DNA of 64,000 nucleotides from Bacteroidota bacterium. Lineage in GTDB: Bacteria > Bacteroidota > Bacteroidia > AKYH767-A > 2013-40CM-41-45. This document shows, in pieces, positions 774 through 45,200 of this stretch; position 1 is the first letter of the stretch, and the number at the start of each line of letters is the position of its first letter. The notes beneath the pieces are model-generated. The model saw only the letters and a program-made list of their open reading frames with translations. It had not been told where the DNA came from and did no database searches. The position numbers and the translations under genes are program-made. The DNA lies in the NCBI GenBank assembly GCA_016720655.1, contig JADKKE010000032.1, positions 182,383 through 246,382 of the forward strand, written 5' to 3'.

Positions 774-974
774 TTTGGTTATTTGGTTATTTGGTTATTA
801 TGTTATTAAGTTATTGAGTTATTTAGACATTCCTTAGAATGGATATTGAGTTTATTAATTAACAGATTCTCTTGCCTAATAACCTAATAACAAAATAGCT
901 CCATAGCTCAATAACTTAATATTGAAAACAATTGCTCTTCCAACCCAAGCCGCCAGTCCAATAACCTAATAATG
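774..974. repeat. Intergenic heptamer tandem-repeat arrays. GGTTATT/AGTTATT run on the left (774-826) and the inverse complement AATAACC/AATAACT on the right (876-974), forming an imperfect long inverted repeat between the convergent xdhC and esterase genes
   Basis: Direct reading: ttggttatttggttatttggttattatgttattaagttattgagttatt, then cctaataacctaataac ... tcaataacttaat ... ccaataacctaataatg. Confidence 0.85.
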
Positions 975-1020
975 TTGTGGCAATGCGGTATTATCGGCTG
1001 CCCTTTTGTTTTTCAAAGTA

Positions 1021-2319
1021 TTATTTTTTAATTACTGGAATTGCTCTTTGAGTAATATTTACAAAAATTATTGCATCAAAATTATCTTTTGGTCTGATAC
1101 CCGATAGATGTTTTGGTTTTGTTAAAAAAACAGCACCGTACTCGTACATTTTTTGGAATCTTTTGTAAATTGGATTGGAAGAATTTCGTAAGTCAACAAA
1201 AAAAGAACTGAAATTAGTTTTAAAAAAATCGTCAGCAAGTTTGTGTTTTCGGTTAGCATCAACATGAAATTCTTGTAGTTTGTTGTCTTTAATAGCTTGA
1301 AAATTCCCTTCTTTAAAAACGAAACCGATGTTGTAATAATCCATATCAAAAAAACCATACAGGTATTCTCCCATACTTTTATAAACAGGAATTTTCATCG
1401 TTCTTAAATATGGAACTTTCGCAATATGTCCATTGTGTGCCCACACAAAAACCTTTGTATTTTCAAGTTCGGAAATCCATTTTATATTTTGAGCCATACA
1501 ACTGTCTCTAATATTTGGATTCGGGTTTTGAGTCATTGAAATTTGAAATAACAATAAAGTCTGTTTTAGGTTTTCAATGTTGTATTTTGCAATTAGATAT
1601 TTTTGCTTTCCACTTTTTTCGATATACAAATGTTCATTCTCTGTAAACCATGTGTCTAGAAAAGTAATTGATTGATTTATTTCTAAATCTATTTTCGAAT
1701 TTTCGCCAACCTTATCAATATTTGAAAAGTAGCTAGCAGTGCTATCATTGAGAATAGAAATTCCTTTTTTAAAGATATTGATGTTTACGCTGTCAACAGC
1801 AGTAACATAATCAGTTAAAGAATTACTCGCGCCCTTGAATGACTGGCAATCGAAGCCATAAAACTTTAATTTGTCGTTTTCAGCTTTTTGTGTATTGTAT
1901 TGTTTTATCCATTCAATAAGATCTCTTAATTCTTCTGTGTCCCAAGTCCAGAATTCCATTCCTTTCATTGCGCTTAAAACATCACCCTTACCATACAATA
2001 CATAGTCGTTTATTTTCAATGTCCCACCATAAGTCGCTTCTATGGAAAAGACTTTGTAACCACAATAGGTTGCAAGGAATTTAAACATTTTAGCTTTCAT
2101 GTTAAAAAACTCCTTTGTACCGTGTGTTGCTTCGCCCATTCCAATAACTTTTTTCTCCTTGAAGAATTTTTCAAGTGGAATTAATTCATCGATGTTTTGA
2201 GTTTCATTTGGATGAAGTGAATAGATTGTATCGCTGTGCCCTTTGATTTGAACTACAACTTGTGAAAAGCATTGACAAGAAATAAAAGCAAGAAATAAAA
2301 TGAAGAATAAAAATTTCAT
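1021..2319 (-). CDS. Erythromycin esterase (Ere/ChaN-like) family protein with signal peptide
   Basis: GMGEATHGTKEFF motif of PF05139-type esterases. The N-terminus is hydrophobic (MKFLFFILFLAFISCQ). The ORF extends to 2388, but the likely start is the internal Met at 2319. Confidence 0.55.
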   Translation of the reverse strand: MKFLFFILFLAFISCQCFSQVVVQIKGHSDTIYSLHPNETQNIDELIPLEKFFKEKKVIGMGEATHGTKEFFNMKAKMFKFLATYCGYKVFSIEATYGGTLKINDYVLYGKGDVLSAMKGMEFWTWDTEELRDLIEWIKQYNTQKAENDKLKFYGFDCQSFKGASNSLTDYVTAVDSVNINIFKKGISILNDSTASYFSNIDKVGENSKIDLEINQSITFLDTWFTENEHLYIEKSGKQKYLIAKYNIENLKQTLLLFQISMTQNPNPNIRDSCMAQNIKWISELENTKVFVWAHNGHIAKVPYLRTMKIPVYKSMGEYLYGFFDMDYYNIGFVFKEGNFQAIKDNKLQEFHVDANRKHKLADDFFKTNFSSFFVDLRNSSNPIYKRFQKMYEYGAVFLTKPKHLSGIRPKDNFDAIIFVNITQRAIPVIKK

Positions 2320-2385
2320 TAGTTGAATTTCTTTCTTTAAGATAATTGAATAAATAGAATGAAAGTGAATAGCGATAAAGGTACC

Positions 2386-2434
2386 CAATAACCTAATAAC
2401 TCAATAACTCAATAACTCAATAACCTAATAACTA
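2386..2434. repeat. AATAACY heptamer tandem array (about 7 copies), upstream of the esterase-like gene
   Basis: cccaataacctaataactcaataactcaataactcaataacctaataact. This is the same unit as at 876-974 in the same orientation, and the complement of the array at 774-826. Confidence 0.85.
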
Positions 2435-3859
2435 TTTCCTCCGTCCTTTAAGGATTCGATAAAACGACCTACTCTGAATTTCTTCCAGAGTCAGTCCGGT
2501 TACAAGTGCTTCTTCTTCCGTTATTGCTCCTGAATTCATGGCACGAAGGAAATAATTTAAAAGTCCTTGTCCGGTTGCGGCATCGTCGAAAATATCTCCG
2601 GAGAGAGTGGCTTGTGCCGCTTTGTTCACGAAATGGAAAAGTCGTGCCGCTGCATCTTCATAACTTTCGAGAAAGAAAGTATAGACAGCAGCGTAACGCA
2701 TCGGTAACTGCGCAGGATTAAGATCCCATCCCTGGTAAAAACCGTTGCGTAAAGAATGCATGGAATGTCCATAGCAGAGTTTCCATGCACGGTGAACGAT
2801 CATTTCATTTTCCTCTTGTTGTGCTAGCGTGAGCGCATCACCTTTGTGTGGACCGATCGGCATTACATTCGTTGCTCCGTCACTCAGAAAAATTCCTGTT
2901 CCTGCAAGCGCAACTTTCGTCATGTGATGAGCGAAATCACAAACCGGATGATCCATGGTTTGATATTTTGCAGTGATATTACAGGATGCTGTATAATCAT
3001 AAGTCCCAAAATGTGCAGCAACACAACGACCATTTCCAGCCATGATCAGGGAACGAAGTGGATTGATACCATCTTTGTCCATGATGGCTTGGGTTGCTTC
3101 CACCATCATTTCCATTTTCAAAATGCCGGGTGCAAGATTAAATTCTTGCTCAATAATTTCAAAAAGAGAAACAAGCGCCTGCATTTGTTCAGGGATAGTT
3201 ACTTTAGGTAACATCACCACGAAGTTCTCAGGTATTTTCCCTCCGGTTTGCTCCAATAATGTACTGAGAAAAATGTCCAGAGTTCGAATCCCTCTTTGTT
3301 TCAAATCTTCTGTGAAGGGCTTAATACGAATTCCAATGAAAGGAGAAATGGTTTTTTCTTTCATTCCTTTTGCGAGTTCCATAGCAGCAGTGACAGCTGT
3401 TGCATCTTCCTCTTCATCGGGACGATTCCCAAATCCATCTTCAAAATCAATACGAAAATCTTCAACAGCTTCGCGTTCAAGTTTTGCAATAATTTTTTTG
3501 TAAACAGTATAGGACAGCCAGGCCGGATGTTTTTTTCTTTCAGCTTCGCTCATTTTATCCAAAGTCGCAGTCAAAGCAGAAATTTTTACAGCTTCTGTTG
3601 GTAAAGTTTCATAACCTGTCAGTTCAAGCACGCGTGCAAGTACAGTAAAATCCGGAGCATAAGACTTCAAACTGCGCAAAGCAATATCTCCCATTCTTTT
3701 GGTCGAATCGGACTTAAAAAGATTCGCTCCGCCATAGACCGTGTGCACAGGTTGTCTGTCAGGTCGATCACCGGGATATGTTTTTTGAAAAACTAAATTC
3801 GCTGCCTGAAGATCGTTGAGTATTTTTTCTTTGGCTGTATTCGGGATGGAGGTTTTCAT
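2432..3859 (-). CDS. HpcH/HpaI-CitE (citrate-lyase beta / malyl-CoA lyase-like) TIM-barrel family protein, function unknown
   Basis: A D-x-E-D metal-binding-like motif (RIDFEDGFG) and an MEMMVEATQAIMDKDGINPL...AGNGRCVAAHFGTYDYTAS stretch resemble the HpcH/CitE fold. The assignment is by motif only. Confidence 0.3.
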   Translation of the reverse strand: MKTSIPNTAKEKILNDLQAANLVFQKTYPGDRPDRQPVHTVYGGANLFKSDSTKRMGDIALRSLKSYAPDFTVLARVLELTGYETLPTEAVKISALTATLDKMSEAERKKHPAWLSYTVYKKIIAKLEREAVEDFRIDFEDGFGNRPDEEEDATAVTAAMELAKGMKEKTISPFIGIRIKPFTEDLKQRGIRTLDIFLSTLLEQTGGKIPENFVVMLPKVTIPEQMQALVSLFEIIEQEFNLAPGILKMEMMVEATQAIMDKDGINPLRSLIMAGNGRCVAAHFGTYDYTASCNITAKYQTMDHPVCDFAHHMTKVALAGTGIFLSDGATNVMPIGPHKGDALTLAQQEENEMIVHRAWKLCYGHSMHSLRNGFYQGWDLNPAQLPMRYAAVYTFFLESYEDAAARLFHFVNKAAQATLSGDIFDDAATGQGLLNYFLRAMNSGAITEEEALVTGLTLEEIQSRSFYRILKGRRK

Positions 3860-3890: not shown

Positions 3891-3950
3891 CCTGGTACTT
3901 GGTACCTAAGACCTGGTACCAAGTATTAGGTATCAAGTACCAGGTGTCAA
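3891..3950. repeat. Palindromic low-complexity intergenic repeat (ggtacc / gtattaggtat / aagtaccaggt motifs)
   Basis: cctggtacttggtacctaagacctggtaccaagtattaggtatcaagtaccaggtgtc. It shares the gtattaggtatNaagtaccaggt core with the 176-bp repeats at 42685-43240. Confidence 0.8.
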
Positions 3951-3967
3951 ATCTAAGCAAATAGTTA

Positions 3968-4678
3968 TTATCTGATTAAAGAATATCCTTTCAGAAAATC
4001 CAAAAAGGCTTGACTATTTAATAACTTATAATCCTGTTCCATTCCGGGATGGGTCATGAGTTCGATGGAGTCTCCGTTGATTGTTGGATTTACAACCATA
4101 AATTTTTCCAGTCGGGCGAAATTTGGAATGTGGTTCAGTGGATTACTATGTTTTTTGAAATAGTTATTTAGTAAAGAGCGATACACTTGTTTGTGAAAAG
4201 CACTGGGATAAAGCACATTTCCCGCGACACGGATGCGAACTCCACCGAATTTTTTGGCGAGGCGCACAACAATTTTTGCAACGGGCCAATTGGTATGTTT
4301 GTGATGATGTAAATCGATGTGATGCAAAGCAATTCCGGAATTGATCAGTTTTTGAATTTGTGCATCCAGTTCTTGTTCGAGAATTTCGAGATATTTTTTA
4401 TCTGCTGTTAATCGTCCGCCGGGATAGAAAAGTTTTTTATCGCCATAAGCAGTGCGAAATGCATCCGAAACTGGTTTCCCACCATCGAGGTCAAGATGTA
4501 TTCCAAGTTTTGGTTCCAGACTTTGTCTTTTATACCATTGAACAGCTTCTTCAAAACCCGGCATTGTCACCATGACAGAAGTAGAGGAGATCAGTCCTTT
4601 TTCATAACAATCCGTGATCCTCTCGTTGGTGAGTGAATCTATTCCAAGATCGTCGGCGATGATGAGAATTTTTGTCAT
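3968..4678 (-). CDS. ChbG/HpnK (YdjC) family carbohydrate deacetylase
   Basis: N-terminal IIADDLGIDSLTNERI, an HLDLDGG motif and a paired-His motif match the YdjC-like fold. A 4-bp overlap (ATGA) with the upstream DltD-like gene suggests co-transcription. Confidence 0.55.
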   Translation of the reverse strand: MTKILIIADDLGIDSLTNERITDCYEKGLISSTSVMVTMPGFEEAVQWYKRQSLEPKLGIHLDLDGGKPVSDAFRTAYGDKKLFYPGGRLTADKKYLEILEQELDAQIQKLINSGIALHHIDLHHHKHTNWPVAKIVVRLAKKFGGVRIRVAGNVLYPSAFHKQVYRSLLNNYFKKHSNPLNHIPNFARLEKFMVVNPTINGDSIELMTHPGMEQDYKLLNSQAFLDFLKGYSLIR

Positions 4679-5763
4679 GGCTTATTGACGTCCGGCCGGG
4701 AATTACTTAGAACAAGTTTATTAAATTCTCTCGCAAGATATTTTGTATACAAAACAGCACCTTGTTCATTGAGATGTGTTTCATCGGAAGCATTTTCTAC
4801 TGCATACAAATCCGGATATTTCCTGGAATCAGCGATTTCAATTCTGTAGCGTGGATCGATATTATAGAAGACGGTTAGAATTTCTTTGTACTGCCGTGGA
4901 TCAGCCCTTGGATTCATTACGAATACAGGATAAATTCCGTTGGCAAGCAGATTCTGAATGGTAGAATTGATCTGATCAAGATAAACATGATTGTAATTCC
5001 GAATGAGCTCCGGATTTTTCTCCAGTTCTTCAAATGCTTGAGCTGAATTTATTTTCCGTGTTGTCAAACCACTCGTGTCATTCAGGAAATGAGCAAGTCC
5101 GGCATCTTCATGGGCTTCTTTCCCACTGTAACCAGCATATGTGTTGTCCATTCTAGCGATGGAATCTGTTACCATTGTTTGCCTTTTGTGATAATCATTG
5201 CGGTCGCTGATGGATCCTGCATTGAGTAAATGATCGATGTAACCAATAGTATGCGAAGAAAGAGCAGCGACTTTTACAGTTGGGGGAGAAGGGGAAGAAA
5301 GAATAGAAGCGATTGTGAATTTGAAATCGGACCAATTGTACCAATAGATCGCCCGTGCTGTATGCATGTTCTGGTAATCGATGATTTTTATTTTCGAGAG
5401 TTCGATGAAAATGTAACGTGTACCTTCTGTGTTTTCTTTGAGCACATGATCGAGCATGTAATACACTTCCGGGAAACCCATCCAATCAACACCGTAATTG
5501 AATGAATGAATGGCTAAAGTCGAATCTGTGTTCTCATTGAATACCTGAGGAACAAATCCCCGGCGCGTTGAACTGGATCCAATGAAGAGCAAATTGAATT
5601 GTGCCGGATGGGTTCGTAAATATTCCCGCTTCAAATGCAATGCATCAAAGCTATAGGACCAGGGCATTTCTCTTTCCGGTGAACGCAGGATTTTTCTCAC
5701 CGGGATGCTGAGTGCCAGTGCAAGTAGTGCAAAAAGAAATAATTTCAGGATCAGCTTTGCCAT
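4675..5763 (-). CDS. DltD/AlgX-like SGNH-fold protein with signal or anchor peptide, partner of the MBOAT
   Basis: N-terminal hydrophobic segment, LLFIGSSSTRRG (block-I-like Ser) and C-terminal DETHLNEQGA (DxxH block). It lies immediately downstream of the MBOAT, as dltD does in dlt operons. Confidence 0.45.
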   Translation of the reverse strand: MAKLILKLFLFALLALALSIPVRKILRSPEREMPWSYSFDALHLKREYLRTHPAQFNLLFIGSSSTRRGFVPQVFNENTDSTLAIHSFNYGVDWMGFPEVYYMLDHVLKENTEGTRYIFIELSKIKIIDYQNMHTARAIYWYNWSDFKFTIASILSSPSPPTVKVAALSSHTIGYIDHLLNAGSISDRNDYHKRQTMVTDSIARMDNTYAGYSGKEAHEDAGLAHFLNDTSGLTTRKINSAQAFEELEKNPELIRNYNHVYLDQINSTIQNLLANGIYPVFVMNPRADPRQYKEILTVFYNIDPRYRIEIADSRKYPDLYAVENASDETHLNEQGAVLYTKYLAREFNKLVLSNSRPDVNKP

Positions 5764-5766
5764 CGT

Positions 5767-7194
5767 CTAAAATTGAGCATAGATAAATCCTTTTCCTCCG
5801 AGGATGCCGAGGTTGAGAATGACGAGTGCAATGATTCCATAAACAGACCAGCGAATAAATGCGGGCTTACTTGTTAGTGCCTGACTGAAATTAATTTTTG
5901 GTTGATAGAATTGTAAAATTAAAAGCAACAACACGCCGCAACATGCCAGTATAAATTCAAATGGATCCAAACCAAGACTATAAAAAGAGACTAGTTTGGA
6001 TTGGTCAAGGAGATGTGTGATCACATACCAGCCTTCGCTTACTGTATTTGCTCTAACAAATGTGAAGCTTAGCAGTGTGAAAATGAACGTGATCGTCATG
6101 GTCAGGTATTTCGCTGAAAGCGGAGACATTTTCTTGAAAAATTTCTTTCTCCACTTTGCAGTTCTCAATTCATAACCCATGGCCAGACCATTAATTAAAC
6201 CCCAGGTCATAAATGTCCAGCCGACTCCGTGCCATAAGCCACTGAGGAAAAATGTAATGAAGATTGCGAAGACCATTCCCCAGTTTCCAAGATTCCTCCA
6301 TTGCAATGAAATGGGATTGTAAACATATTCATACAGCCAGGTAGACAATGAAATATGCCAGCGTTTCCAGAAGTCAGTTACCGAAGTTGCTGCAAATGGA
6401 CGATTGAAATTCTGCATGATTTCAATTCCAAGGATTTGTGAAACACCCAATGCGATGTCCATATATCCTGAAAAATCAGCATAGAGTTGCACCATGTAAA
6501 ACAAACCGGCGACCAGGAGAATGATTCCACTGTATTGTCCTGTATGATCATACACCTGACTTACGACAATTGAAAGCCTGTCGGCAATCACCAGTTTTTT
6601 AATTAATCCCCATGCAATTAATTTCAATCCGGAAACAACTCTATTGTAGTCAAACTTTTTACTCTCATACAATTGAGGAAAAATATTTCTTGGTCGGTCA
6701 ACCGGTCCCTGGATGAGTTTTGGGAAATACAGAAAATAGGTTGTGAAGACGAGAAAGTTTTTTTCTGCAGGTTCCATTTCTCGTTGGATATCTACGTTGT
6801 ATCCTATCGCCTGAAGAATGAAATAAGACAAACCAACAGGGACTAACAAATGAAGCACCGGAAGCGGATTGTGAATCCCTATACCGTTTAGAAATGAAGA
6901 AAATTCAAGGTTAAAGAAGTTGTAATATTTGAAAATAAACAATGCTCCGAGGTTGACAAGACAGCTCAGCAACAACACTGCATTTTTTCTAAGTGTTTTT
7001 TCAATCCAGATTCCGGTAAAGTAATTGCAGATGATCAGCGCAGAAAGAATTCCCAGCCCTTTAAGACTGTAAAAAGCACAAAAGACAATGGAACCAAGGA
7101 GTAACCACCAAAGCTGCAATTTTCCTTTCATCCTGAAATAAACGAGAGCAAAAAGTGTGAAGAAAACCAGAAATGTAAAGGAATTGAATACCAT
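5767..7194 (-). CDS. MBOAT family O-acyltransferase (DltB/AlgI-like)
   Basis: Multi-pass membrane protein carrying the conserved FWRRWHISLSTWL...YNP motif with the catalytic His of DltB/AlgI. Confidence 0.8.
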   Translation of the reverse strand: MVFNSFTFLVFFTLFALVYFRMKGKLQLWWLLLGSIVFCAFYSLKGLGILSALIICNYFTGIWIEKTLRKNAVLLLSCLVNLGALFIFKYYNFFNLEFSSFLNGIGIHNPLPVLHLLVPVGLSYFILQAIGYNVDIQREMEPAEKNFLVFTTYFLYFPKLIQGPVDRPRNIFPQLYESKKFDYNRVVSGLKLIAWGLIKKLVIADRLSIVVSQVYDHTGQYSGIILLVAGLFYMVQLYADFSGYMDIALGVSQILGIEIMQNFNRPFAATSVTDFWKRWHISLSTWLYEYVYNPISLQWRNLGNWGMVFAIFITFFLSGLWHGVGWTFMTWGLINGLAMGYELRTAKWRKKFFKKMSPLSAKYLTMTITFIFTLLSFTFVRANTVSEGWYVITHLLDQSKLVSFYSLGLDPFEFILACCGVLLLLILQFYQPKINFSQALTSKPAFIRWSVYGIIALVILNLGILGGKGFIYAQF

Positions 7195-7205
7195 TCTGAG
7201 ATTTA

Positions 7206-7454
7206 CTAAACCGAATGAAGTTTAGAGTGAATCATGTTAACCATGTCGCCGACATTTTTGAAACTCAAGACTTCTTTCAGTTTAAATTTTACATTGAAAT
7301 GTTTTTCCACTTCCACGATCATGGATGTATGCGTAAGCGAATCCCATCCATCAACATCGTTGGCAGTTGTATCCATTTGCAATATCACCGCATCATTCTC
7401 AAATATTTTTTTAAAAATAATAGTCAACTGATTCAAAATTTCGTTCTTATCCAT
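7206..7454 (-). CDS. Acyl/D-alanyl carrier protein (DltC-like, 82 aa)
   Basis: Small acidic protein with a DGWDSLTHTSMIVEVE phosphopantetheine-attachment motif (DSL). It sits between the adenylating enzyme and the MBOAT. Confidence 0.65.
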   Translation of the reverse strand: MDKNEILNQLTIIFKKIFENDAVILQMDTTANDVDGWDSLTHTSMIVEVEKHFNVKFKLKEVLSFKNVGDMVNMIHSKLHSV

Positions 7455-7456
7455 TT

Positions 7457-7492
7457 CTAATTTCTAATTTATAACTCATAACTCATAACTCA
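7457..7492. repeat. ATAACTC heptamer tandem repeat in the dltC-dltA intergenic spacer
   Basis: tttctaatttataactcataactcataactcactt. Confidence 0.8.
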
Positions 7493-7493
7493 C

Positions 7494-8987
7494 TTACAAA
7501 CCCGCTTGCTGCATCAACACTTTCCGATCTGTTTTTCCATTTGAATTCAAAGGGAAAACTCCAGTTCCAATAATTTTGGCAGGCAACATATAACCCGGAA
7601 TCGTGTCTTTCAGATGTTGCATCAAAGCACTGGTATTTTCTGAATAATTTTCAATAAACAAATAAATCTGCCACACGGTAGCTTCATTTTGTTTTGCAAT
7701 GGCGACGACTGCATGTGTTTTTACAAATTCTCTTGCATGCATTTCGATTTCACCAAGTTCAACACGAAACCCCTGGATCTTCACTTGAAAATCAATCCGT
7801 CCACTATAACTGATATCTCCATCTTTATCCGCAAAACAAAGATCACCTGTTCGGTAATACCGTTTCGAGCGATAGATGAAGAATGCTTCTTTATTTTTTT
7901 GTTCGTTTTTCCAATATCCCGGAGTCACTTGTCTGCCATGCAAACAAAGTTCGCCTTTTTCCATTGCATCAGCGGGTTTTCCTTCATCATTAAAAATTTC
8001 CGCTTTCATATGATTCATCTCTTGTCCAATGCAAAGAATTCCGTTCAGAGATTTATTTCCACCTTCCCGATTGATGGGATATGTTGTGCAAAATATTGTT
8101 GCTTCTGTTGGTCCGTACACGTTCAGTAATTCAGCATTTGGAATACACTTTGCCCATTCCAATGTGACATCTTCATACAACGCTTCTCCACAGAACAAAG
8201 AGTATTTCATTTTCTCCAAATGAATTTCTCCGAAGTAAGGACGCAAATGCGTAATGATGGATGGAACAAGCAGAGCAAAAGTAATTTCATGTTCTTCCAT
8301 CAGCTGATAAACCTGCATGTATTTTATTCCCTCAAAAGGAACTGTATATACACAAGCACCAATACACAGAGGAGCCATATAACTCATGATCGACAAATCA
8401 AATGTCATGTCGAACATTTGAATGAATCGATCACCTGATTCGATATCAAAACCCAAATCAAAGAATGCACTAAGGAAGGATTCAAGATTTTCAATAGTCA
8501 ATGGCACACCTTTGGGTACGCCGGTGCTTCCGGAAGTAAATAATATGTAAGCATTACGATCCGGCTCCTGTTCAATAAATGCAGGAACGGAACTTGTATC
8601 TGCAGGCAGATTCGTTTTTATCACCATTGTTGACGTGGAGGAAAAAGCATCCGCTTCTTCTTCCATTTTGCTGCTCAACAACACACGAATTTCCGCTTGT
8701 TCAAGGATGGATTCATTCCTGGATTTCGGATGCAATGGATTTATCGGAACGAATGTGTGTCCACTAAAAAGGATTGCAAACACTGAAGCATACGTTTGCA
8801 AGTCATCGTATGTCAAAATTCCGATGTTGCAATTTCCTTCAAGGCCTTTGGATTGAATCTGCTGTTGGATGTTGGCAATACAAGCTCCCAATTCTGCATA
8901 CGAATAATGAGTTCCGGCAATGCAAAAAGCCGGCTTCTCCCGTTCAACCAAAATGTTACGCAGGATTTCCTCCAGAGGATGATTCAT
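7494..8987 (-). CDS. AMP-binding adenylation enzyme (DltA-like carrier-protein ligase)
   Basis: LFTSGSTGVPKGV (A3 core), YGPTE, YRTGD and C-terminal GKTDRKVL motifs. At 497 aa it is stand-alone adenylation-domain size. Confidence 0.8.
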   Translation of the reverse strand: MNHPLEEILRNILVEREKPAFCIAGTHYSYAELGACIANIQQQIQSKGLEGNCNIGILTYDDLQTYASVFAILFSGHTFVPINPLHPKSRNESILEQAEIRVLLSSKMEEEADAFSSTSTMVIKTNLPADTSSVPAFIEQEPDRNAYILFTSGSTGVPKGVPLTIENLESFLSAFFDLGFDIESGDRFIQMFDMTFDLSIMSYMAPLCIGACVYTVPFEGIKYMQVYQLMEEHEITFALLVPSIITHLRPYFGEIHLEKMKYSLFCGEALYEDVTLEWAKCIPNAELLNVYGPTEATIFCTTYPINREGGNKSLNGILCIGQEMNHMKAEIFNDEGKPADAMEKGELCLHGRQVTPGYWKNEQKNKEAFFIYRSKRYYRTGDLCFADKDGDISYSGRIDFQVKIQGFRVELGEIEMHAREFVKTHAVVAIAKQNEATVWQIYLFIENYSENTSALMQHLKDTIPGYMLPAKIIGTGVFPLNSNGKTDRKVLMQQAGL

Positions 8988-9136
8988 ATCCCTGCAATAC
9001 GTTCAAAAAAGGGCATTGTTTCGCAGGAAAGGAAGAAAATAGCAGGAAAATTGACTTAAAAGATGCTGGATTCAGAGCTTAAGGGAAGAAAGACTCGATT
9101 TGGCTCCAAATCTATTTCTATTCTGAATGAAACCAA

Positions 9137-9478
9137 TCAACTTCCCCGATACGTTGTAAATCCATATGGACTCAGCAACAGTGGAATGTGATAATGTTTG
9201 CCATCAGAAATTTCAAAAACCAATTGAACATATGGGTAAAACCCTTTCAGTTTTTGTCGGGAAAAATAGTCGGCTGTCTCAAAAGTCATTCGGTAAATTC
9301 CGGGTGAAAGGATCACATCTGTTTTGAGTAAATCAGAAACGCGACCGTCCGCATTTGTAACTCCATTGCCTAGTGCAATCCATTCATTCAACCCCGAAAT
9401 GGTTTCAAATGTAACTTTGATTCCTTGTGCCGGACTTCCTTTTGAAGTGTCCAATACATGTGTAGTAATCTGACTCAT
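9137..9478 (-). CDS. uraH: 5-hydroxyisourate hydrolase (transthyretin-like)
   Basis: 113 aa with the HVLD... motif and the C-terminal YRGS signature. Located within the purine-catabolic cluster. Confidence 0.9.
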   Translation of the reverse strand: MSQITTHVLDTSKGSPAQGIKVTFETISGLNEWIALGNGVTNADGRVSDLLKTDVILSPGIYRMTFETADYFSRQKLKGFYPYVQLVFEISDGKHYHIPLLLSPYGFTTYRGS

Positions 9479-18261: not shown

Positions 18262-18390
18262 GGGGGGACGAGGGACGATGGGACGGGGGACGTTAGGCGA
18301 GAGCAATTGGCGGGATTCGAACATTGAACACGGAACCTTGAACACGGAACCCGGAACAACATTAAACCTTGAACTTTGAACCTTGAACTA
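18262..18390. repeat. Low-complexity intergenic repeat block: gggacg four times, gaacacggaac twice, ccttgaac three times
   Basis: gggggacgagggacgatgggacgggggacg...gaacattgaacacggaaccttgaacacggaacccggaac...aaccttgaactttgaaccttgaac. Confidence 0.8.
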
Positions 18391-36809: not shown

Positions 36810-38813
36810 TTAATTCCTGCTTAATTTCTTAAATGGATTACTAAAGTTTTTGTCAGAAATAAAAACCGAATCACTAAGTGTTTTCAAAAAAGCTATAATA
36901 CTTTGCTGTTCTTCTTTGGAAAGATTTGCTCCATGTTTATTTGCAAATTGCATCTTTGAATCCAAATTCACACAGTTCTTTACACCGGAACTATAGAACT
37001 CAAGAACTTCTTCGAGGGTCTTGAATCGACCATCATGCATGTAGGGTGCTGTGAACAATAGATTGCGTAGAGATGGAATTTTGAATTTTCCGATGTCTTC
37101 TTTTTTTTCTGAAATTCCTCCTCTTCCTTTGTCAGGATAAAACTGAACATCGACAACTGAGTCAAGTCCATTGTTGCTAAAAGTTAATGTTGTTCCTAAA
37201 GCATCTCCGTCAGTGGGATGACAATGCAGACAATCGCCTTTTGTTTGATCGTTCACCAAAACAAAACCTTTGATCTCATTTTCAGTAAAATGATCTTTCC
37301 CTGCAATGACCCTGTCATATTTAGATTGATTGGATAAAAGACTTCGTAGAAATTGTGAAAGAACATTTGAAACTTTTTCGCTGTCAATTTCTCCGGCACC
37401 AAAAATTTCCTGGAACAAAGATTTGTAATAGTTGTTTTCATTAAGTCGATTGCAAAGATCTTCGGGGTGCATATTCATCTCATCCGATGCTGTGATAGGG
37501 TGAAAGACCTGATTTTCGATTCCTGTAGCTTTTCCATCCCAGAAGAATGAAGGATACCAGGCAAGATTGAACAAGGGCAATGTATTTCGCGTCATGAATA
37601 CACTGTTTTTTCCTTTACTGAATTTATTCGGTGCATCACTGAAAGCATACTTCTGCTGATGACAAGATGAACAGGATAGGGTGCTGTCTGAGCTCAGGAT
37701 GGGATCATAAAAAAGTTGTCTGCCCAAATTAATTCCCTCATCCGTGATTGTGTAATGAATTGGCAAAGGCATTTCCGGAAAGAATTTCATTTCCGGAAAT
37801 GCATGCGGACTGAGACCGGATTTAGCTCCAAGGAAAAGGAGTGAAAGTACGATCAATTTCAACCCTGGTTTCGAGAGTTGTTTGATCCTTGTAGAATTCA
37901 TCGTTGAATCAGCAAAGGGAATAGTTTCAGACTGAATATTGGTCTTGACTTTCAGGTAGTACATTCCGTTGGCGAATTTGCCGGTGTCGAACCAGAATTT
38001 AGTAGGAACATTCGTCCATTTTTTTACCAACTCTCCGGTTGAATTGATAAGTTCCATGTCTTCAATGATGTGATAGGCAAGTACTTTTCTTGCTTCAACG
38101 TGCACAATCTCTCTTGCCGGATTCGGATATACGTTTAGATAATTTGCCTGGTCCTTTTCCTTGATCGTGTGAATTAAAGTAATACTCGACCACATGTTGT
38201 CAATGAGCCATCCTTCCTTTTCACTATTGACAGAATCGCTTAATAAACTGAACCGTGCCAGGACGGTGTCAGGAAAAGTACTCATCCACGACAAATCAAA
38301 ACACAGCCAGATGTTTTTCCAACTTGAATCCGTACCACTGAATCCGATTTCTCCGGAAGGAAGTGTGTCAACATTTGCGGTATCAAAACCATAGAAATTG
38401 TAAACGTAAGCATTGTTGAATGCATTCTGCCAACTTAGGCCGTGGTCAATAGAAAATTCAATTGTTCCAAGATCACCACTAGAATCAATATCCAGTTTTT
38501 GTAACCATTGAATCGCCAATATTCCCCACCAGAACTGATTTAAAACATTGAAAGTAAACCTGCTCGTATCATTCACAGGATAATAATTCAAAGTATCTGT
38601 TACAATAGCATTTGGTGCAGTCGCTGCACTGTCAAAGATTATTTTCTGTGGATGTCCGATTTGCCAAACATTTGATACGCTTGTATCGGTTTCGATGAGT
38701 ATTGAGTTCTGTATAGAAGTATCAGCTCCATCAAAATATTGTGTAAAAAATTGAGCAGTTGAAATTTGACACGAGAAAATAAACAAGATGATAAATGTGT
38801 ATAATTTAGCCAT
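36810..38813 (-). CDS. In-frame fusion or read-through. A roughly 300-aa N-terminal module with signal peptide and T9SS C-terminal sorting domain is joined to a di-heme cytochrome c peroxidase (CCP/MauG family) that has its own signal peptide and could start at 37901
   Basis: T9SS tail NYLNVYPNPAREIVHVE...ANGMYYLKVKTNIQSETIPF at aa 225-300. After 4 residues follows MNSTRIKQLSKPGLKLIVLSLLFLGAK (signal peptide), then CSSCH, CLHCH and PSLRNLLFTAPYMHDGRFKTLEEVLEFY. There is no stop codon between the modules. Confidence 0.65.
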   Translation of the reverse strand: MAKLYTFIILFIFSCQISTAQFFTQYFDGADTSIQNSILIETDTSVSNVWQIGHPQKIIFDSAATAPNAIVTDTLNYYPVNDTSRFTFNVLNQFWWGILAIQWLQKLDIDSSGDLGTIEFSIDHGLSWQNAFNNAYVYNFYGFDTANVDTLPSGEIGFSGTDSSWKNIWLCFDLSWMSTFPDTVLARFSLLSDSVNSEKEGWLIDNMWSSITLIHTIKEKDQANYLNVYPNPAREIVHVEARKVLAYHIIEDMELINSTGELVKKWTNVPTKFWFDTGKFANGMYYLKVKTNIQSETIPFADSTMNSTRIKQLSKPGLKLIVLSLLFLGAKSGLSPHAFPEMKFFPEMPLPIHYTITDEGINLGRQLFYDPILSSDSTLSCSSCHQQKYAFSDAPNKFSKGKNSVFMTRNTLPLFNLAWYPSFFWDGKATGIENQVFHPITASDEMNMHPEDLCNRLNENNYYKSLFQEIFGAGEIDSEKVSNVLSQFLRSLLSNQSKYDRVIAGKDHFTENEIKGFVLVNDQTKGDCLHCHPTDGDALGTTLTFSNNGLDSVVDVQFYPDKGRGGISEKKEDIGKFKIPSLRNLLFTAPYMHDGRFKTLEEVLEFYSSGVKNCVNLDSKMQFANKHGANLSKEEQQSIIAFLKTLSDSVFISDKNFSNPFKKLSRN

Positions 38814-40728: not shown

Positions 40729-40808
40729 CAACTCATAATTCTTAACTCATAATTCTCAACTCATAACTCATAACTCTCAACTCATAATTCTAAATTCATA
40801 ATTTATTT
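40729..40808. repeat. ACTCATAA(T/C)TC heptamer-based tandem repeat in an intergenic spacer
   Basis: aactcataattcttaactcataattctcaactcataactcataactctcaactcataattctaaattcataattt. Confidence 0.8.
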
Positions 40809-40827: not shown

Positions 40828-42182
40828 ATGTCTAAAAATACCACTCCTTCCGGACTGAAACGTGAACTATCCCTTGTCCAGGCAACGGCGATTAACATGA
40901 TTGATATGGTTGGAATTGGTCCCTTCATCGTATTGCCCTTGGTGATAAAAATGATAGGAGGGCCTCATTTTATTTTTGCCTGGATTGTTGGTGCAGTGAT
41001 TTCCCTGGTGGATGGAATGGTTTGGGCAGAACTTGGGAGCAGCTTATCCGAAAGCCGGAGGGAGTTATAATTTTTTGAAGGAAGCGTATGGGAGAAAAGG
41101 AGGGAAGGTGCTTTCGTTTTTTATACGTGTGGCAGACACTAATCCAGGCTCCATTAGTTGCAGCAAGCGGAGCGATTGGTTTCGCACAGTACTGCACCTA
41201 TTTGTACCCCTTCACACCTGTTCAGCAAAAAATGGTTTCAGGGAGTATCATCATTTTATTGGTGTTCTTTCTTTACAGGAAAATTGAAACCATTGGAAAA
41301 ATCAGTGTAATGTTATGGGTTGCAGTTCTTGTGACCATTAGTTGGATGATCTTCGGAGGAATCACCTCTCATACGATTTCGAACAATTGGATTCCGGATA
41401 ATCATTCTGATTTGTTCGGCAGTTTGTTTTTCTTTGCGCTCGGACAAGCATCTGTAAAAACTATTTACAGTTATCTTGGGTATTATAATGTTTGCCATCT
41501 TGGCGGAGAGATCCGCAATCCAGGAAAAAATATTCCACGAAGTATTTTCATTTCTGTTTTCGGTATCGCTTTCCTTTATCTCGCCATGAATATCAGTGTT
41601 GTGAGCGTGATTCCATGGCAGGAAGCACAGAATTCTACTTTTATCGTGAGCACCTTCATTGAACGAATTTATGGCCATCAAGCTGCAGTAATAGCTACCG
41701 GTTTGGTACTTATTGTTGCGTTTTCCTCCTTGTTTGCTGTGTTGCTCGGTTATTCCCGCATTCCGTATGCAGCAGCAGTGGATGGACAATTTTTTCCTGC
41801 ATTTGCGAAACTTCACCCAACAAAGAATTTCCCTCATATTTCATTGCTCTTCCTCGGAGGTGCCGCATTTATCTTCAGTCTGCTTTTTAAGTTAAGCGAT
41901 GTAATTAGTGCGATATTGGCCATGAGAATTCTTGTTCAATTTATCGGACAAGCAATTGGTGTTATATTACTGCGAAAGAGAAACGGAACGGCACATCTTC
42001 CGTATAAGATGTTCTTATATCCACTCCCTGTTATCCTTGCGATTTTAATCTGGATTTTTATTTTCGTCTCAACTGGGTGGAAATTCGTACTTTCAGGGCT
42101 TACTGTGATGTCAATAGGGGTAATCGTTTACTTGCTAATGCCTCCTTTTAAGCCGGAAAGCCGGGCTGGTGAGGTAAGATAG
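40828..42182 (+). pseudogene. APC-family amino-acid permease disrupted by two frameshifts
   Basis: Three consecutive ORFs encode one permease: ...MVWAELG / AAYPKAGGSYNFLKEAYGRKGGKVLSF / LYVWQTLIQAPLVAASG.... The first shift is near 41035-41038 (an extra a in ggga). The second is an extra T in the T6 run at 41117-41122. Confidence 0.7.
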
Positions 42183-42228: not shown

Positions 42229-42684
42229 ATGAATTCGAAGTACAAAATAAAACTGAAAAAATTTGCTGAAGAGATTCTCCAACAAAGAATGGAAACAGCG
42301 CAGCACGCAATGTTGCAAGCTCAGGATGCAGCAAATTCCGAAGATAAAAGTTCAGCCGGTGACAAATATGAAACGGCTCGTGCTATGGGACAGCTCGACA
42401 GGGAGATGAATGCAAAACAGTTCGAAGAAGCAAAGCGCGAACTCGCATTGTTGCAATCACTATACGTTCTTGAATCATCACCTGTTGTTATTCCCGGATC
42501 TTATGTAAAAACAGACAAAGGAGATTTTTTCATTTCCTCCGGCCTCGGAATTCATACTGTTGAAGGTAAAAAAGTTGGCTTCCTCTCCGTGAAATCTCCC
42601 CTCGCAATTCCTTTGTTAGGCAAGTCCAAAGGCGATACTTTTCAATTCAATGGCCAGCCCTGGAAGGTGGAGGAGTTGGTGTAA
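42229..42684 (+). CDS. GreA/GreB-family (Rnk-like) protein, with an N-terminal coiled-coil and a C-terminal FKBP-like Gre domain
   Basis: C-terminus ISSGLGIHTVEGKKVGFLSVKSPLAIPLLGKSKGDTFQF matches the GreA C-terminal domain consensus (SPiarALlGkkvGD). Confidence 0.45.
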   Translation: MNSKYKIKLKKFAEEILQQRMETAQHAMLQAQDAANSEDKSSAGDKYETARAMGQLDREMNAKQFEEAKRELALLQSLYVLESSPVVIPGSYVKTDKGDFFISSGLGIHTVEGKKVGFLSVKSPLAIPLLGKSKGDTFQFNGQPWKVEELV

Positions 42685-43240
42685 GGTGGTATTAGGTATA
42701 AGGTATTAAGTACCAGGTACCAGGTAGGTGGCGTGCTAATTTCTGATGCATTTTTTTTGCAATGAATTTATCTTTGCTGAATCTGCAATTTGTGGACACA
42801 TACCAACCACTAACCACTAACCACCAATTTTTCCCATTGAATTTATTGTTGCTCAATCTGCGAATAGGTATTAGGTATTAAGTACCAGGTACCAGGTAGG
42901 TGGCGTGCTAATTTCTGATGCATTTTTTTGCAATGAATTTATCTTTGCTGAATCTGCAATTTGTGGACGCATACCAACCACTAACCACTAACAACTAATT
43001 TTTCCCCATTGAATTTATTGTTGCCCAATCTGCGAATGGGTATTAGGTATTAAGTACCAGGTACCAGGTAGGTTGTGTGCTAATTTCTGTAGCATTTTTT
43101 TGCAATGAGTTTATTGTTGCTGAATCTGCAATTTGTGGACGCATACCAACCACTACCCACTAACCACCAATTTTGCCCATTGAATTTAACGTTGCTCAAT
43201 CTGCATTTTGTCCACGCATACCAAAATCTAAAATCTATTT
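42685..43240. repeat. Three tandem copies of a roughly 176-bp intergenic unit. Each contains the gtattaggtattaagtaccaggtaccaggt motif plus two internal sub-repeats of about 45 bp (gaatttatYKttgctSaatctgcaWtttgtSSacRcataccaa)
   Basis: The unit boundaries at 42685, 42866 and 43041 all begin (g)ggtattaggtat. Copies are about 90% identical and have no coding potential; the 92-aa ORF across them is low-complexity. Confidence 0.85.
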
Positions 43241-43339
43241 TCTATTTACTATCAGCAAACAATAAATATGTAAGCCCCTCCGTTACTCAGGACAGATGGT
43301 CGAACTATACGCAACCTTTTACACAAAAACAAAAACCGT

Positions 43340-43981
43340 ATGAAACGATCCATCATTCTCATTCCTGTATTGTTATGTGTTAGTATTTCTGTTCAAGCTA
43401 AATTGCTTGATTTTATGAAGCAACCCGGTTCCGGAAATTTCTCATTGGGGACACGGAACACGTTCAGTATGTTCAATGACATTCCTGAGGAAACCCGTGG
43501 ATTGGGTGTTGGCGGACAATACCGCATTCAGTTTGCAGAGCGAATTAATACAGAATGGTATTTTGATTACATCACTTCTTCCATTTTCGACAAGGCTGTT
43601 CGGAATGATTATCATATCGGCTGGTCAGTGATGTATTACCCGGGAAAGACGGTTGATTTTAGTAATCTACTTCAACCTTATTTTATTGTCGGACATTGTT
43701 TCGACTATACCAAAGTTTTCGACAAGGATAATCGCGATTACTATAGTGATCGTGTGAGCCTTGCCACACAAGGTGGTTTGGGCTTACATGTGAACATCAC
43801 GAAAAGCCTGGATATAACTTTGTCAACACAGTATATGATGCACTTTGGAAAAGAAATTGAAGTGTCACAGGAAGAAGGAAATCTTGTACTCGAGAGAAAT
43901 AAATATTCCTCGCCGGATGGACATTTATTGGCAACGGCCAGTGTCAATTTTAAATTTGGAAAATTATGGAATAGATCCTGA
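43340..43981 (+). CDS. Small outer-membrane beta-barrel protein (OmpA-like / porin family)
   Basis: Signal peptide MKRSIILIPVLLCVSISVQA, amphipathic beta-strand pattern, and a Phe three residues from the C-terminus (…NFKFGKLWNRS). Confidence 0.5.
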   Translation: MKRSIILIPVLLCVSISVQAKLLDFMKQPGSGNFSLGTRNTFSMFNDIPEETRGLGVGGQYRIQFAERINTEWYFDYITSSIFDKAVRNDYHIGWSVMYYPGKTVDFSNLLQPYFIVGHCFDYTKVFDKDNRDYYSDRVSLATQGGLGLHVNITKSLDITLSTQYMMHFGKEIEVSQEEGNLVLERNKYSSPDGHLLATASVNFKFGKLWNRS

Positions 43982-44005
43982 GCGTGGTGTAAAGACCTGG
44001 ATGGA

Positions 44006-45016
44006 TCAGATCCTGATGCCTGCAACGAGCACATCGTCTACCTGTTCGTAACGTCCGCGCCAGGATTCAAAATATTCATCCAGTGTTTTTTCTTGTTCTT
44101 TCATTGGAAGCTGATGAATTGATAAAAGGAGTTCTTTGAACTTCTTCGTCATGATCTTCTTCCCCTGTACACCCCCAAACTGATCAGCATATCCATCAGA
44201 ATAGACATAGATAATATCATTGTCCTCGATTTGTAATGTTTGTTGAGTAAACACCCTGTCTTCATCCGGACGAAACCCCCCGATCGGCAGTTTGTCAGGC
44301 TTTAAAGCATCGGCAACATTATTACGTATGTAGTACAGCGGCCTGTTGGCTCCTGCAAACGTTAGCATTTTTGTATTTAGATCAATGTAACAGAGTGTGA
44401 TGTCCATTCCGTCGTGTGAATCACTTTCTTTTTGTTTGAGTGCTTCTACAATTCCATCATTCAGCAATTCAAGAATTTTTGCAGGTTCTACCAAATGTTT
44501 TTGTCCTATAATTTGATGCAACAATGAACTCCCCACCATACTCATGAATGCTCCGGCAACGCCATGTCCGGTGCAATCAGCAATAGCCAGGATGACAGTA
44601 TTATCGATCTTGTCAAAAAAATAGAAATCTCCACTTACAATATCTTTTGGCTTGTATAAGATAAAAGCATCTTTGAAACTTTGAAGAATCGTTTCGGTTT
44701 TTGGAAGAATGGCAGTCTGAATATTTCTCGCATAATGCAAACTGTCAATAATCTCAACATTTTGCTGTGAAACAGTGAGATTTCTTCTCTCCAGTTCCCA
44801 CTTCTGGATCATCACCTGATGCGCTCGTTCGCTAAGTTTATCTGTGAGGTTTTTGTTCTCTTCTCTGAATCTTTTGTTAGCCCAACGGAAATAGAAAACT
44901 CCGCCGATTAAAATAAAGATATTGGAAAAAATCAGGAACCAGGTCAGGTCATCGCTGAAGATCTGTGCATCCGGTCCTTTGGGTACAGAAGTGTAAAGCT
45001 GAAGAAGTATGTGCAC
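44006..45016 (-). CDS. PP2C-family (SpoIIE/RsbU-type) serine phosphatase with N-terminal membrane anchor, a SiaA-like partner
   Basis: DVSGDFYFFDKIDNTVILAIADCTGHGVAGAFMS...VYSDGYADQFGG metal-binding motifs. TM helix FLIFSNIFILIGGVFYF near the N-terminus. Confidence 0.8.
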   Translation of the reverse strand: MHILLQLYTSVPKGPDAQIFSDDLTWFLIFSNIFILIGGVFYFRWANKRFREENKNLTDKLSERAHQVMIQKWELERRNLTVSQQNVEIIDSLHYARNIQTAILPKTETILQSFKDAFILYKPKDIVSGDFYFFDKIDNTVILAIADCTGHGVAGAFMSMVGSSLLHQIIGQKHLVEPAKILELLNDGIVEALKQKESDSHDGMDITLCYIDLNTKMLTFAGANRPLYYIRNNVADALKPDKLPIGGFRPDEDRVFTQQTLQIEDNDIIYVYSDGYADQFGGVQGKKIMTKKFKELLLSIHQLPMKEQEKTLDEYFESWRGRYEQVDDVLVAGIRI

Positions 45017-45139
45017 CTGAATAATAAATATTTTAGATTTGAATCATCGAACGAATCACGGAGCTGCAAAATAGTCAAGAGATTCAATATATGATACTGA
45101 TGAGAAGAAATCTTATTGGATTTGAAAAGAAGCCAATTC

Positions 45140-45200
45140 GGTGTGAGTTTGAGTGTGGGTATGGGTTTGAGTGTGAGTTTGAGTGTGAGTGTGTGGAGAG
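45140..45200. repeat. GT-rich simple repeat (gtgtgagtttgagtgtg-type) in a divergent intergenic region
   Basis: ggtgtgagtttgagtgtgggtatgggtttgagtgtgagtttgagtgtgagtgtgtggagag. Confidence 0.8.

Follow-up and report, generated by a model that had tools for sequence, protein, structure and literature searches.

Eight intergenic spacers in a 64-kb window of an uncultured Bacteroidota genome (contig JADKKE010000032.1; the window is the whole stretch of DNA analyzed here) carry tandem arrays of 7- and 8-nt units. We interpret these arrays as probable slippage-driven, variable number tandem repeat (VNTR)-like heptamers and octamers that are kept out of genes by selection against frameshifts, with any regulatory effect secondary. 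The evidence comes from comparing the window with shuffled DNA, with independent assemblies of the same locus and with loci of about 20 kb from relatives. We refer to the spacers as 1 (764–1020), 2 (with the array at 2383–2433), 3 (with 3891–3944), 4 (7455–7493), 5 (with 18262–18388), 6 (with 40729–40808), 7 (42685–43339) and 8 (45017–45422).

Period-7 and period-8 arrays occupy intergenic spacers far above chance

The window contains 21 arrays of period 7 or 8, which cover 532 bases; 100 block-wise shuffles that preserve dinucleotides gave 3.8 ± 2.1 arrays, with a maximum of 9, and 67 covered bases. Under strict criteria (at least 3 copies and at most 10% mismatch) the window contains four arrays of period 7, three of period 8 and none of periods 9–13, with periods 4–6 no higher than background. 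These four strict period-7 arrays in 64 kb compare with seven in 163 kb of close relatives and none in a further 1.02 Mb made up of distant Bacteroidota contigs and unrelated metagenome contigs, which bears out an earlier sequence-only reading that had called the density unusual for bacterial DNA. A curated gene map has 31 spacers of 30 nt or more, of which 8 contain arrays; the arrays make up ~1.06 kb of 6.0 kb of intergenic DNA. The same reading had counted at least nine spacers; sequence reading and Tandem Repeats Finder confirmed every one of its blocks, and nine proved to be the number of sequence blocks rather than of spacers. Its claim that arrays fit precisely between stop and start codons without ever overlapping coding sequence holds almost to the letter: every period-7/8 array is outside long open reading frames (ORFs), the gene-internal hits being weak period-9 and period-12 ones, but two arrays touch codons. 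The octamer array at 2383–2433 starts with the stop TAG of the DUF6986 gene at 2432–3859(−), which belongs to its first unit, and the ATG of the carrier-protein gene at 7206–7454(−) lies inside the last degenerate heptamer of the array in spacer 4.

Six of the eight array-bearing spacers are flanked by co-directional genes, and in five of the seven that have an upstream stop codon the array starts at most 10 nt after it; arrays of the related locus L126 likewise begin close to the upstream stop codon. The orientation of arrays relative to genes is inconsistent across the array-bearing spacers. A small set of words recurs between spacers (repeat families D8, D11 and D13) and in related species, as the sequence-only reading had proposed for a shared vocabulary: ATAAC(T/C)(C/T), as 7-mers and 8-mers, in spacers 1, 2, 4 and 6; GGTA(T/C)(T/C)A plus GGTACC in spacers 3 and 7; GGGACGR with GAACNNN and AACYTTG in spacer 5; and AACCACT in spacer 7.

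Arrays change by whole units between strains

The locus is present at ~98.7% nucleotide identity in at least 10 independent assemblies (NCBI metagenome-assembled genomes (MAGs), ENA short-read assemblies, JGI and Logan). Among the MAGs with this locus are GCA_016704735.1, GCA_016718015.1, GCA_016718125.1 and GCA_963852685.1, and GCA_046329995.1 is of the sister species. Our strain sets comprise 10 independent assemblies for the arrays at 40729, 42685 and 45141 and up to 8 of 10 further ones for the arrays of the left part. A copy-number comparison of this kind had been suggested from the sequence, and it shows that array lengths differ in steps of complete units of 7 or 8 nt. In the window, 39 nt separate the DltA-like and carrier-protein genes, and elsewhere the distance is 24, 45, 52 or 108 nt (8 of 10 assemblies readable); one to ~15 GAATTAA and GAAATTA units occupy this spacer in other strains, and the window strain instead has (GAGTTAT)x3(AAATTAG)x2. 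The octamer array at 2383–2433 has 6, 6, 7 and 8 units in different strains, in exact 8-nt steps, the array at 40729 has one extra AACTCAT unit in strain L032 and is identical in the other 9 of 10, and a 172-bp composite repeat in spacer 7 is present in 2 or 3 copies depending on the strain. The array at 45141–45193 is invariant in 10 of 10 strains. Because whole units are gained and lost between strains, the data point to slipped-strand mispairing as the mechanism that resizes the arrays, with unequal exchange as a second possible route. To this extent the earlier proposal of a specific generating mechanism or function is upheld, but its other half is not, as no dedicated function is supported.

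These comparisons also bear on whether the arrays are an assembly, sequencing or synthetic-linker artefact, to which we assign almost no probability. Some window genes are frameshifted and intact in other strains, which suggests long-read indel errors; however, the arrays recur in at least 10 independent assemblies and related arrays occur in sister species, and we judge the artefact explanation refuted and the repeats real.

Arrays turn over between species and the vocabulary persists

We recovered orthologous spacers through the DUF6986 and outer membrane protein (OMP) proteins and through a metagenome scan with the DltA-like protein, which returned mostly distant homologues (31–56%) without synteny and was informative only for L090 (85%). 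The DltA-like/carrier-protein spacer is unique sequence in L090 and in L126 (88%), and the palindrome at 3891–3944 is absent from the orthologous YdjC/DUF6986 spacer of L126. In the sister species represented by L132/L133, the orthologue of spacer 7 is 145 nt long and contains no repeat, only the promoter-proximal 120 nt of the window (43223–43342) being homologous to it, and the orthologue of spacer 8 is 244 nt long and has no array. The spacer upstream of the permease gene is arrayed in both species, with (CACTCTT)x3.4 in a 45-nt spacer of the sister species versus AACTCAT/AATTCTC in the window. No arrays were found in 21 kb each of L128/L129, L130 and L131, relatives at 79–83% identity. These comparisons show that an individual spacer can acquire or lose its array over the time in which species diverge.

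The words themselves recur at unrelated positions. A 560-nt spacer of L003, between TP_methylase and type IX secretion system (T9SS) protein genes that are non-orthologous to the flanking genes in the window, contains GGTAYTA/GGTACCA strings, four GGGACNN units (18647–18678), GAAACAC arrays and GGTTGNT arrays, and its segment 18589–18617 matches the palindrome at 3891–3944 (93% over 29 nt, E = 3e-6). In L126, the DUF6986 and XdhC genes are separated by 378 nt that hold (TGGTTGA)x4 facing (AACCAAC)n, GTTTCGT units and (ACCTAAT)x20, and L126 shares GAAACAC-type arrays with L003. L008 (52%) carries (TTGAACY)n, within which 3456–3475 is an exact 20-nt match to window 18365–18388 (E = 2e-5). Quantitatively, 11-mers from the array-bearing spacers of the window reach 23 to 218 matches per kb in the L003, L126 and L008 spacers versus a background of 1 to 3 per kb, and 11-mers from the other spacers of the window are not above background there. 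These matches demonstrate that the vocabulary outlives individual arrays. What had been described as characteristic of one genome is a trait of the lineage, found in the window species, in the sister species L003, L126 and L132, and in L004 and L008; more distant Bacteroidota mostly lack such arrays.

A slippage model and the observations that strain it

Our preferred explanation combines these results. Slipped-strand mispairing or unequal recombination would add and remove whole units; as 7 and 8 are not multiples of 3, an array inside a gene would shift the reading frame, and selection would confine arrays to spacers. Arrays would accumulate where constraint is lowest, right after stop codons or throughout a short operon spacer. 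Given the same few words at non-homologous loci and in sister species, arrays are probably also seeded or overwritten from each other by ectopic conversion, or certain words amplify preferentially.

Several observations weigh against this model. Pure slippage fails to account for the same words at unrelated loci across species at 78–88% amino-acid identity. The strain with GAGTTAT units where others have GAATTAA is likewise unexplained by slippage, as a swap of one word for another is not the signature of slippage or of unequal exchange. Some arrays are stable, 45141–45193 being identical in 10 of 10 strains and 40729–40808 in 9 of 10, and the permease spacer is arrayed in both species with different units, which could reflect selection for having an array there. 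The preference for 7 nt is left unexplained, a polymerase footprint being the idea offered in the literature, and the evidence spans about 64 kb of this genome.

Since the vocabulary is conserved and the positions are not, a dedicated process comes into consideration, in which the lineage encodes an activity that writes 7–8-nt words into free DNA ends or gaps. We think this very improbable. Such a writer might, for example, copy a template in the manner of telomerase, slip as a primase-polymerase or reverse transcriptase while breaks are repaired, or act as a conversion system with sequence specificity. If true, the heptamer arrays of Bacteroidota, and by extension the short tandemly repeated repetitive (STRR) sequences of cyanobacteria, would have been left by a repair or insertion enzyme not yet described and not by passive polymerase slippage.

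Scans of viral sequences for the same words did not separate mechanisms. (AACYTTG)x3 occurs in 72 viral stretches over all four variants, in 28 non-redundant groups and often several times per phage contig; the counts were 25 and 15 for control heptamers with permuted letters and 39 for the exact (AACCTTG)x3. Stretches with (GGTATTA)x3, the octamer and (AACTCAT)x3 numbered 9, 2 and 19, respectively. TTGAACY as a universally favoured word was rejected, being at most about twofold special relative to the permuted controls. Heptamer arrays nevertheless seem common in some phage groups. In the IMG/VR viral contigs concerned (L152, L159, L179 and L185), some phage contigs carry one heptamer cassette, composed of GTTCTAT x2, GTTCAAC, GTTGAAC and then (CTTGAAC)n, at three or more intergenic sites per genome, and other viral contigs of 57–67% G+C have (AACYTTG)n directly upstream of a Shine-Dalgarno sequence plus ATG.

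Gene-insertion junctions and a mobile or repair-linked origin

A different route to shared words at unrelated loci would be their spread by a mobile or repair-linked process, whether as repetitive extragenic palindrome (REP), REP doublet (REPIN) or miniature inverted-repeat transposable element (MITE)-like elements or as filler DNA at gene insertion and deletion junctions, the arrays being recombination scars or hot spots. We consider this quite unlikely, and the left part of the window is where it fits best. The Ere-like gene at 1021–2319(−) is absent from all four related-species loci inspected (L126, L128, L130 and L131) and is bracketed in the window by AATAACYY arrays, and the palindrome at 3891–3944 stands at the edge of a five-gene DltA/carrier-protein/MBOAT/hypothetical/YdjC cluster, 3968–8987(−), that is missing in L128, L130 and L131. 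The Ere-like gene and this dlt-like cluster are accessory insertions into a conserved purine-catabolism neighbourhood. At the junction of DUF6986 and XdhC in L126 there are 378 nt of arrays, identical word strings of 19 to 29 nt are found at unrelated loci, and for Gramella MacGregor suggested that repeats of this type take part in rearrangement (PMC4679880). That suggestion fits the Ere-like and dlt-like junctions but is not general, since spacers 6–8 are collinear with the sister species: arrays were gained or lost in these spacers within a fully syntenic region, and the rule that arrays mark gene-insertion junctions, true for spacers 1–3 and false for 6–8, was rejected.

Other features of the arrays also argue against mobility. 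No terminal inverted repeats or target-site duplications bound them, and neither the scanned ORFs of the window nor the inspected loci of sister species yielded a transposase; protein-family scans of most, though not all, window ORFs returned no transposase, integrase or reverse transcriptase. The palindrome at 3891–3944 shares its word string with 42687–43062 and with L003, as an element of the REP, REPIN or MITE type might, but has no fixed ends or target-site duplications. Size changes come in whole units, as in slippage, and the 172-bp composite seems locally amplified, with a tail homologous to the ancestral spacer; its core scores 24–25 against the ancestral spacer just after the stop, versus a shuffle mean of 18.6 ± 3.4, which is suggestive only.

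Separately, L131 has ~9 REP-like hairpins (CGACCCC-N4-6-GGGGTCG, then AATATTTATA-like tails) in one 900-nt spacer (9100–9900) upstream of its DUF6986 gene; this locus has no heptamer arrays.

Predicted RNA structure and possible effects on expression

We folded the arrays as RNA and compared the predicted energies with those of shuffled sequences. Direct arrays are shuffle-like (z from −1.2 to +2.0) and nearly unpaired in absolute terms. The 136-nt region around 40729–40808 folds at −7.5 kcal/mol with the array fully unpaired in the minimum-energy fold, 7440–7500 folds at −3.5 kcal/mol (z = 0), the octamer array at 2383–2433 is unstructured (z = +0.5), and the 143-nt (ACCTAAT)x20 array of L126 reaches only −1.7 kcal/mol, weaker than 200 of 200 shuffles. 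On a given strand most units contain G or C but not both, and this rules out G–C pairs within an array. Inverted arrays fold strongly: spacer 1 (764–1020), with the inverted arrays 773–921 at the convergent XdhC-like/Ere-like junction, folds at −54.6 kcal/mol (z = −2.5), the palindrome at 3891–3944 forms a predicted hairpin of −34.4 kcal/mol (z = −5.7), and inverted arrays right after the DUF6986 stop in L126 fold at −44.9 kcal/mol (z = −7.3).

Under the slippage model these properties would be by-products that selection may occasionally exploit. Where one strand of a direct array has no G or no C, the RNA from stop to start would be structure-free, inverted arrays would give long hairpins at 3′ ends, (GGGACGA)x4 would contribute a predicted G-quadruplex (G4) motif, and changes in copy number would alter the stop-to-start distance, from 24 to 108 nt in one operon. 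In this way the arrays may affect translation, termination or mRNA stability.

The alternative that the arrays are selected RNA-level cis-regulatory elements, acting as platforms for binding or as unstructured landing sites by which translation initiation is adjusted or adjacent ORFs are uncoupled, strikes us as rather unlikely. Strains would then tune expression through copy number, and the G4 motif and inverted arrays would serve as 3′-end stabilisers or terminators. The lack of predicted pairing in direct arrays suits such a role, as do the hairpins at convergent junctions in two species, the co-directional genes around six of eight array-bearing spacers, and the arrays of spacers 4 and 6 and of the sister species' spacer, which fill the spacer or end just before the start codon. 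Bacteroidota ribosomes disregard Shine-Dalgarno sequences and need leaders that are A-rich and unstructured. Words kept across species while positions shift are what a trans-acting binder would produce; MacGregor proposed binding of S1, Csp or CsrA to TAACTGA repeats (PMC4679880), and initiation in Bacteroidia relies on mRNA structure and upstream nucleotide identities rather than on Shine-Dalgarno sequences (PMC6847099). However, orientation is inconsistent, since the sense strand carries GT-rich words in spacers 2 and 4 but the complements of these words in spacer 6, and close relatives with conserved genes lack arrays in the orthologous spacers. The flanking genes have no function in common, spacer length in a single operon varies from 24 to 108 nt among strains of one species and reveals no evident preferred state, and published studies found no regulatory role either (PMC4692102).

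Two further identities were rejected. A sigma-70 promoter scan gave no excess in the arrays, and the Bacteroidetes −7 motif TAnnTTTG is absent from them, being present only in the non-repeat core of the 172-bp unit (42769 and 42940), which excludes promoter arrays. Scans of the whole window returned no tRNA and no Rfam family at gathering threshold, excluding known RNA families and tRNA-linked elements.

Arrays of the left part of the window

Spacer 1 separates the XdhC-like gene at 110–763(+) from the convergent Ere-like gene. Its first octamer array (ATTTGGTT/GGTTATTW, ~6.5 units, 773–824, plus strand; Tandem Repeats Finder and sequence reading) begins 9 nt past the XdhC-like stop and forms the left arm of an inverted-array hairpin, in which inverted repeat I14 pairs 804–831 with 894–921. 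The right arm consists of AATAACC-type blocks at 875–975 (plus strand), namely (CCTAATAA)x2, (AATAGCTC)x3.5 and AATAACCTAATAA at 960–973, whose words are the complement of those at 773–824; read on the minus strand, they place GGTTATT words in the 3′ region of the Ere-like gene. The segment 875–921 is 85% identical in direct orientation to 2384–2430 (family D8), with 786–831 as an inverted copy. Strains L036 and L037 have unrelated sequence in place of the block by the XdhC stop (AATAACCA x3 in the window), and a separate terminator-like hairpin with a T-run lies at 985–1010.

The octamer array of spacer 2 (2383–2433, minus strand; Tandem Repeats Finder and sequence reading) comprises 6 units of GTTATTGA, or GTTATTAG on the sense strand, and lies ~65 nt upstream of the ATG of the Ere-like gene (2319). 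In spacer 3, between the YdjC-like and DUF6986 genes, what had been read as a tandem repeat over 3891–3950 is chiefly a near-perfect palindrome at 3891–3944 (inverted repeat I7), with 27-nt arms that are 89% complementary and contain GGTACC and GGTATT words; a 25- to 32-nt word string is common to it and to 42687–42718 with its repeats up to 43062 (D13). Spacer 4 is an array over its whole 39 nt (7455–7493, minus strand, by sequence reading), with the sense sequence TAA-GT(GAGTTAT)x3(AAATTAG)x2 AAATG, between the AMP-binding (DltA-like) gene at 7494–8987 and the carrier-protein gene at 7206–7454; on the plus strand, 7453–7492 reads as ATTTCTA x3 plus ATAACTC x3.

Arrays of the right part of the window

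Spacer 5 opens with (GGGACGA)x4 at 18262–18292 (plus strand), 2 nt past the stop of an OMP beta-barrel gene at 17808–18260(+). Within it, GGGGGGACGAGGGACGATGGGACGGGGG at 18262–18289 is the only (G3+N1-7)x4 G-quadruplex motif in the window by regular expression on both strands, and the GGGACNN x4 block of L003 is its counterpart in word and copy number. GAACACG/GAACCTT/GAACCCG units with a 14-nt super-period and then (AACYTTG)x3.4 follow at 18319–18388 (plus strand, Tandem Repeats Finder), upstream of an extracytoplasmic function (ECF) sigma factor gene at 18454–19071(+). The array of spacer 6 (40729–40808, plus strand, Tandem Repeats Finder) consists of AACTCAT and AATTCTC heptamers with 14- and 21-nt super-periods, ends 20 nt upstream of the ATG of an amino-acid permease gene (40828), and shares the 19-mer AACTCATAACTCATAACTC with 7471–7492 (D11).

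Spacer 7 holds the composite repeat of 172 bp x3 (42685–43252, plus strand), which starts 1–3 nt past the stop of the gene at 42229–42684(+). Each unit contains (GGTATTA)2-3, (GTACCAG)2, a 45-nt core, (AACCACT)3 and a second related core (repeats D7, D10 and D12), and the composite terminates in AAAATCT/ATTTTCT units. The core motif GAATTTANNNTTGCTNAATCTGC occurs 6 times within 42764–43204 versus 0 expected and contains the partly palindromic TTGCTGAATCTGCAA. Two core copies hold the Bacteroidetes-type −7 motif TATCTTTG (42769 and 42940), facing the downstream OMP gene, and the core of the 172-bp unit may, judging from its sequence, be a duplicated promoter or operator. In spacer 8, GTGTGA/GTTTGA hexamers with an 18-nt super-period (45141–45193, not assigned to a strand; Tandem Repeats Finder) lie between the divergent SpoIIE-like (44006–45016, −) and DUF6272 (45423–45977, +) genes.

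Host and gene setting

The host lineage belongs to uncultured Bacteroidota from wastewater, and wastewater metagenome is the label of one assembly record that carries the locus. The window has 40.5% G+C, and the closest species representatives are uncultured Flavobacteriales/Bacteroidia MAGs with 79–82% amino-acid identity over one 858-aa protein. Its proteins are typical of Bacteroidota and include T9SS C-terminal sorting domains, an SprB-like giant adhesin, TonB/STN proteins and an ECF sigma factor, together with a urate-degradation and xanthine dehydrogenase cluster and a DltA/carrier-protein/MBOAT-like cluster.

Repeats within coding sequence are found in the gene of the giant SprB/DUF7948-like T9SS adhesin at 26628–34516(−), which contains a 156-bp (52-aa) unit x17 at 28596–31264 and a 228-bp unit x3 at 27634–28317; in the window its frame is broken into four ORFs, and other strains have the breaks elsewhere. 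The amino-acid permease gene (40828–42182, +) is frameshifted in the window and intact (450 aa) in eight other strains, MauG-like and T9SS-tail genes at 36810–38813(−) are fused (667 aa) in the window and apart (363 + 304 aa) elsewhere, and the gene for the molybdenum subunit of xanthine dehydrogenase at 13779–16123(−) is split in the window. These frameshifted, fused and split genes are probably long-read indel errors of the source assembly; they leave the arrays, which other assemblies corroborate, unaffected. In L029 and L035 a segment encoding hyp286, a deaminase, an S41 peptidase and PAP2 (49753–53943, in the region 48665–53943) is inverted, and the ABC-G transporter gene is also shortened (693 aa versus 1016 aa).

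Relation to known repeat systems

STRR sequences were described in 1990, and the cause and role of bacterial 7-nt repeats have been open since. The classic STRR heptamers are CCCCAGT, TTGGTCA and CAACAGT. No tandem copy of these words is present on either strand of the window, nor is the HIP1 site GCGATCGC; with Bacteroidota proteins bearing T9SS domains, a cyanobacterial origin or membership of STRR proper is rejected. In filamentous cyanobacteria (Nostoc/Anabaena/Calothrix), STRR sequences are 7-bp intergenic repeats, some of them hairpin-forming, for which roles in transcript stability or translational coupling have been suggested (PMC2670836). The window arrays resemble them in having tandem intergenic 7-bp units, a small vocabulary across related taxa and some hairpins between genes.

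The survey of Mrazek et al. (2007), as represented in two later papers, described long simple sequence repeats (LSSR) with 5–11-nt units and a sporadic phylogenetic distribution, heptamers being most abundant, and attributed them to slippage (PMC4679880, PMC4692102). The likeness extends to head-to-tail 7-nt units far above chance, a sporadic lineage-specific distribution, the proposal of slippage, a non-coding bias for units that are not multiples of three, and lengths that vary between close relatives; every feature of the generic heptamer simple-sequence class testable here was found in the window arrays. The hosts named for LSSR in these accounts are Burkholderia, Xanthomonas, cyanobacteria and actinobacteria, without the uncultured Bacteroidota lineage considered here, and, unlike LSSR as presented there, the arrays here also feature prominent 8-nt units (three strict arrays) and different words adjoining in one spacer.

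MacGregor (2015) reported heptamer direct repeats between genes, TAACTGA among them, in Beggiatoaceae, cyanobacteria and five Bacteroidetes, with heptamer 'assemblages' in Gramella, Aequorivita, Elizabethkingia and Flexibacter that are lacking from the same spacers of their closest relatives (PMC4679880). Shared features are proximity to start and stop codons, several heptamers per spacer, the lack of arrays at the corresponding spacer of the nearest relative, and contigs that often break inside the repeats (PMC4679880). The vocabulary differs, however, with 11 single TAACTGA sites and no tandem copies in the window, which places the arrays outside the TAACTGA family, and unit-by-unit strain polymorphism is documented here and not there (PMC4679880).

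Rehm et al. (2015) studied the G4-forming heptamers GGGAATC and GGGGA(C/T)T of Xanthomonas and Nostoc, which vary extensively in length between close relatives, have no identifiable regulatory role and are of a kind whose 'function remains to be elucidated' (PMC4692102). Like them, (GGGACGA)x4 has four G-tracts in four units, on the sense strand, near a stop and between co-directional ORFs (PMC4692102). Unlike them, it is a predicted G4 only, with one array in 64 kb plus one in L003, and its unit, GGGACGA, differs from the GGGNATC type, to which it does not belong. Across studies, heptamer repeats elsewhere show the same non-coding bias, co-directional ORFs, position near stop codons and length variation (PMC4692102, PMC4679880, PMC2670836).

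CRISPR repeats, which are 23–50 nt long and set apart by unique spacers of similar length, do not describe these arrays, whose units are 7–8 nt and contiguous, or the 172-bp x3 repeat, which has no unique spacers. Phase-variation repeats of Haemophilus, Neisseria and Campylobacter have 1–5-nt units within ORFs or between promoter hexamers of surface-antigen genes and act as on/off switches. The arrays share with them short tandem units whose number changes between strains by slippage but differ in lying between a stop and the next start, outside ORFs, beside ordinary metabolic genes and without TAnnTTTG, and we reject their assignment to phase-variation contingency loci.

The lineage suits the question of how 7-nt repeats arise and whether they do anything, as wastewater plants contain it in abundance, nearly identical strains have been assembled by the dozen and length polymorphism occurs unit by unit inside an operon; slippage rate, word turnover and any effect on translation without Shine-Dalgarno sequences could be measured from existing long-read and metatranscriptome data. 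In practice, the arrays can serve as VNTR markers for strain tracking and are likely points of contig breaks or mis-assembly. Together, these comparisons identify the arrays as the Bacteroidota counterpart of cyanobacterial STRR sequences and of long simple sequence repeats, not as a new class of element; its local particulars are the octamer units, the dense strain-level record and a vocabulary that outlives its arrays.

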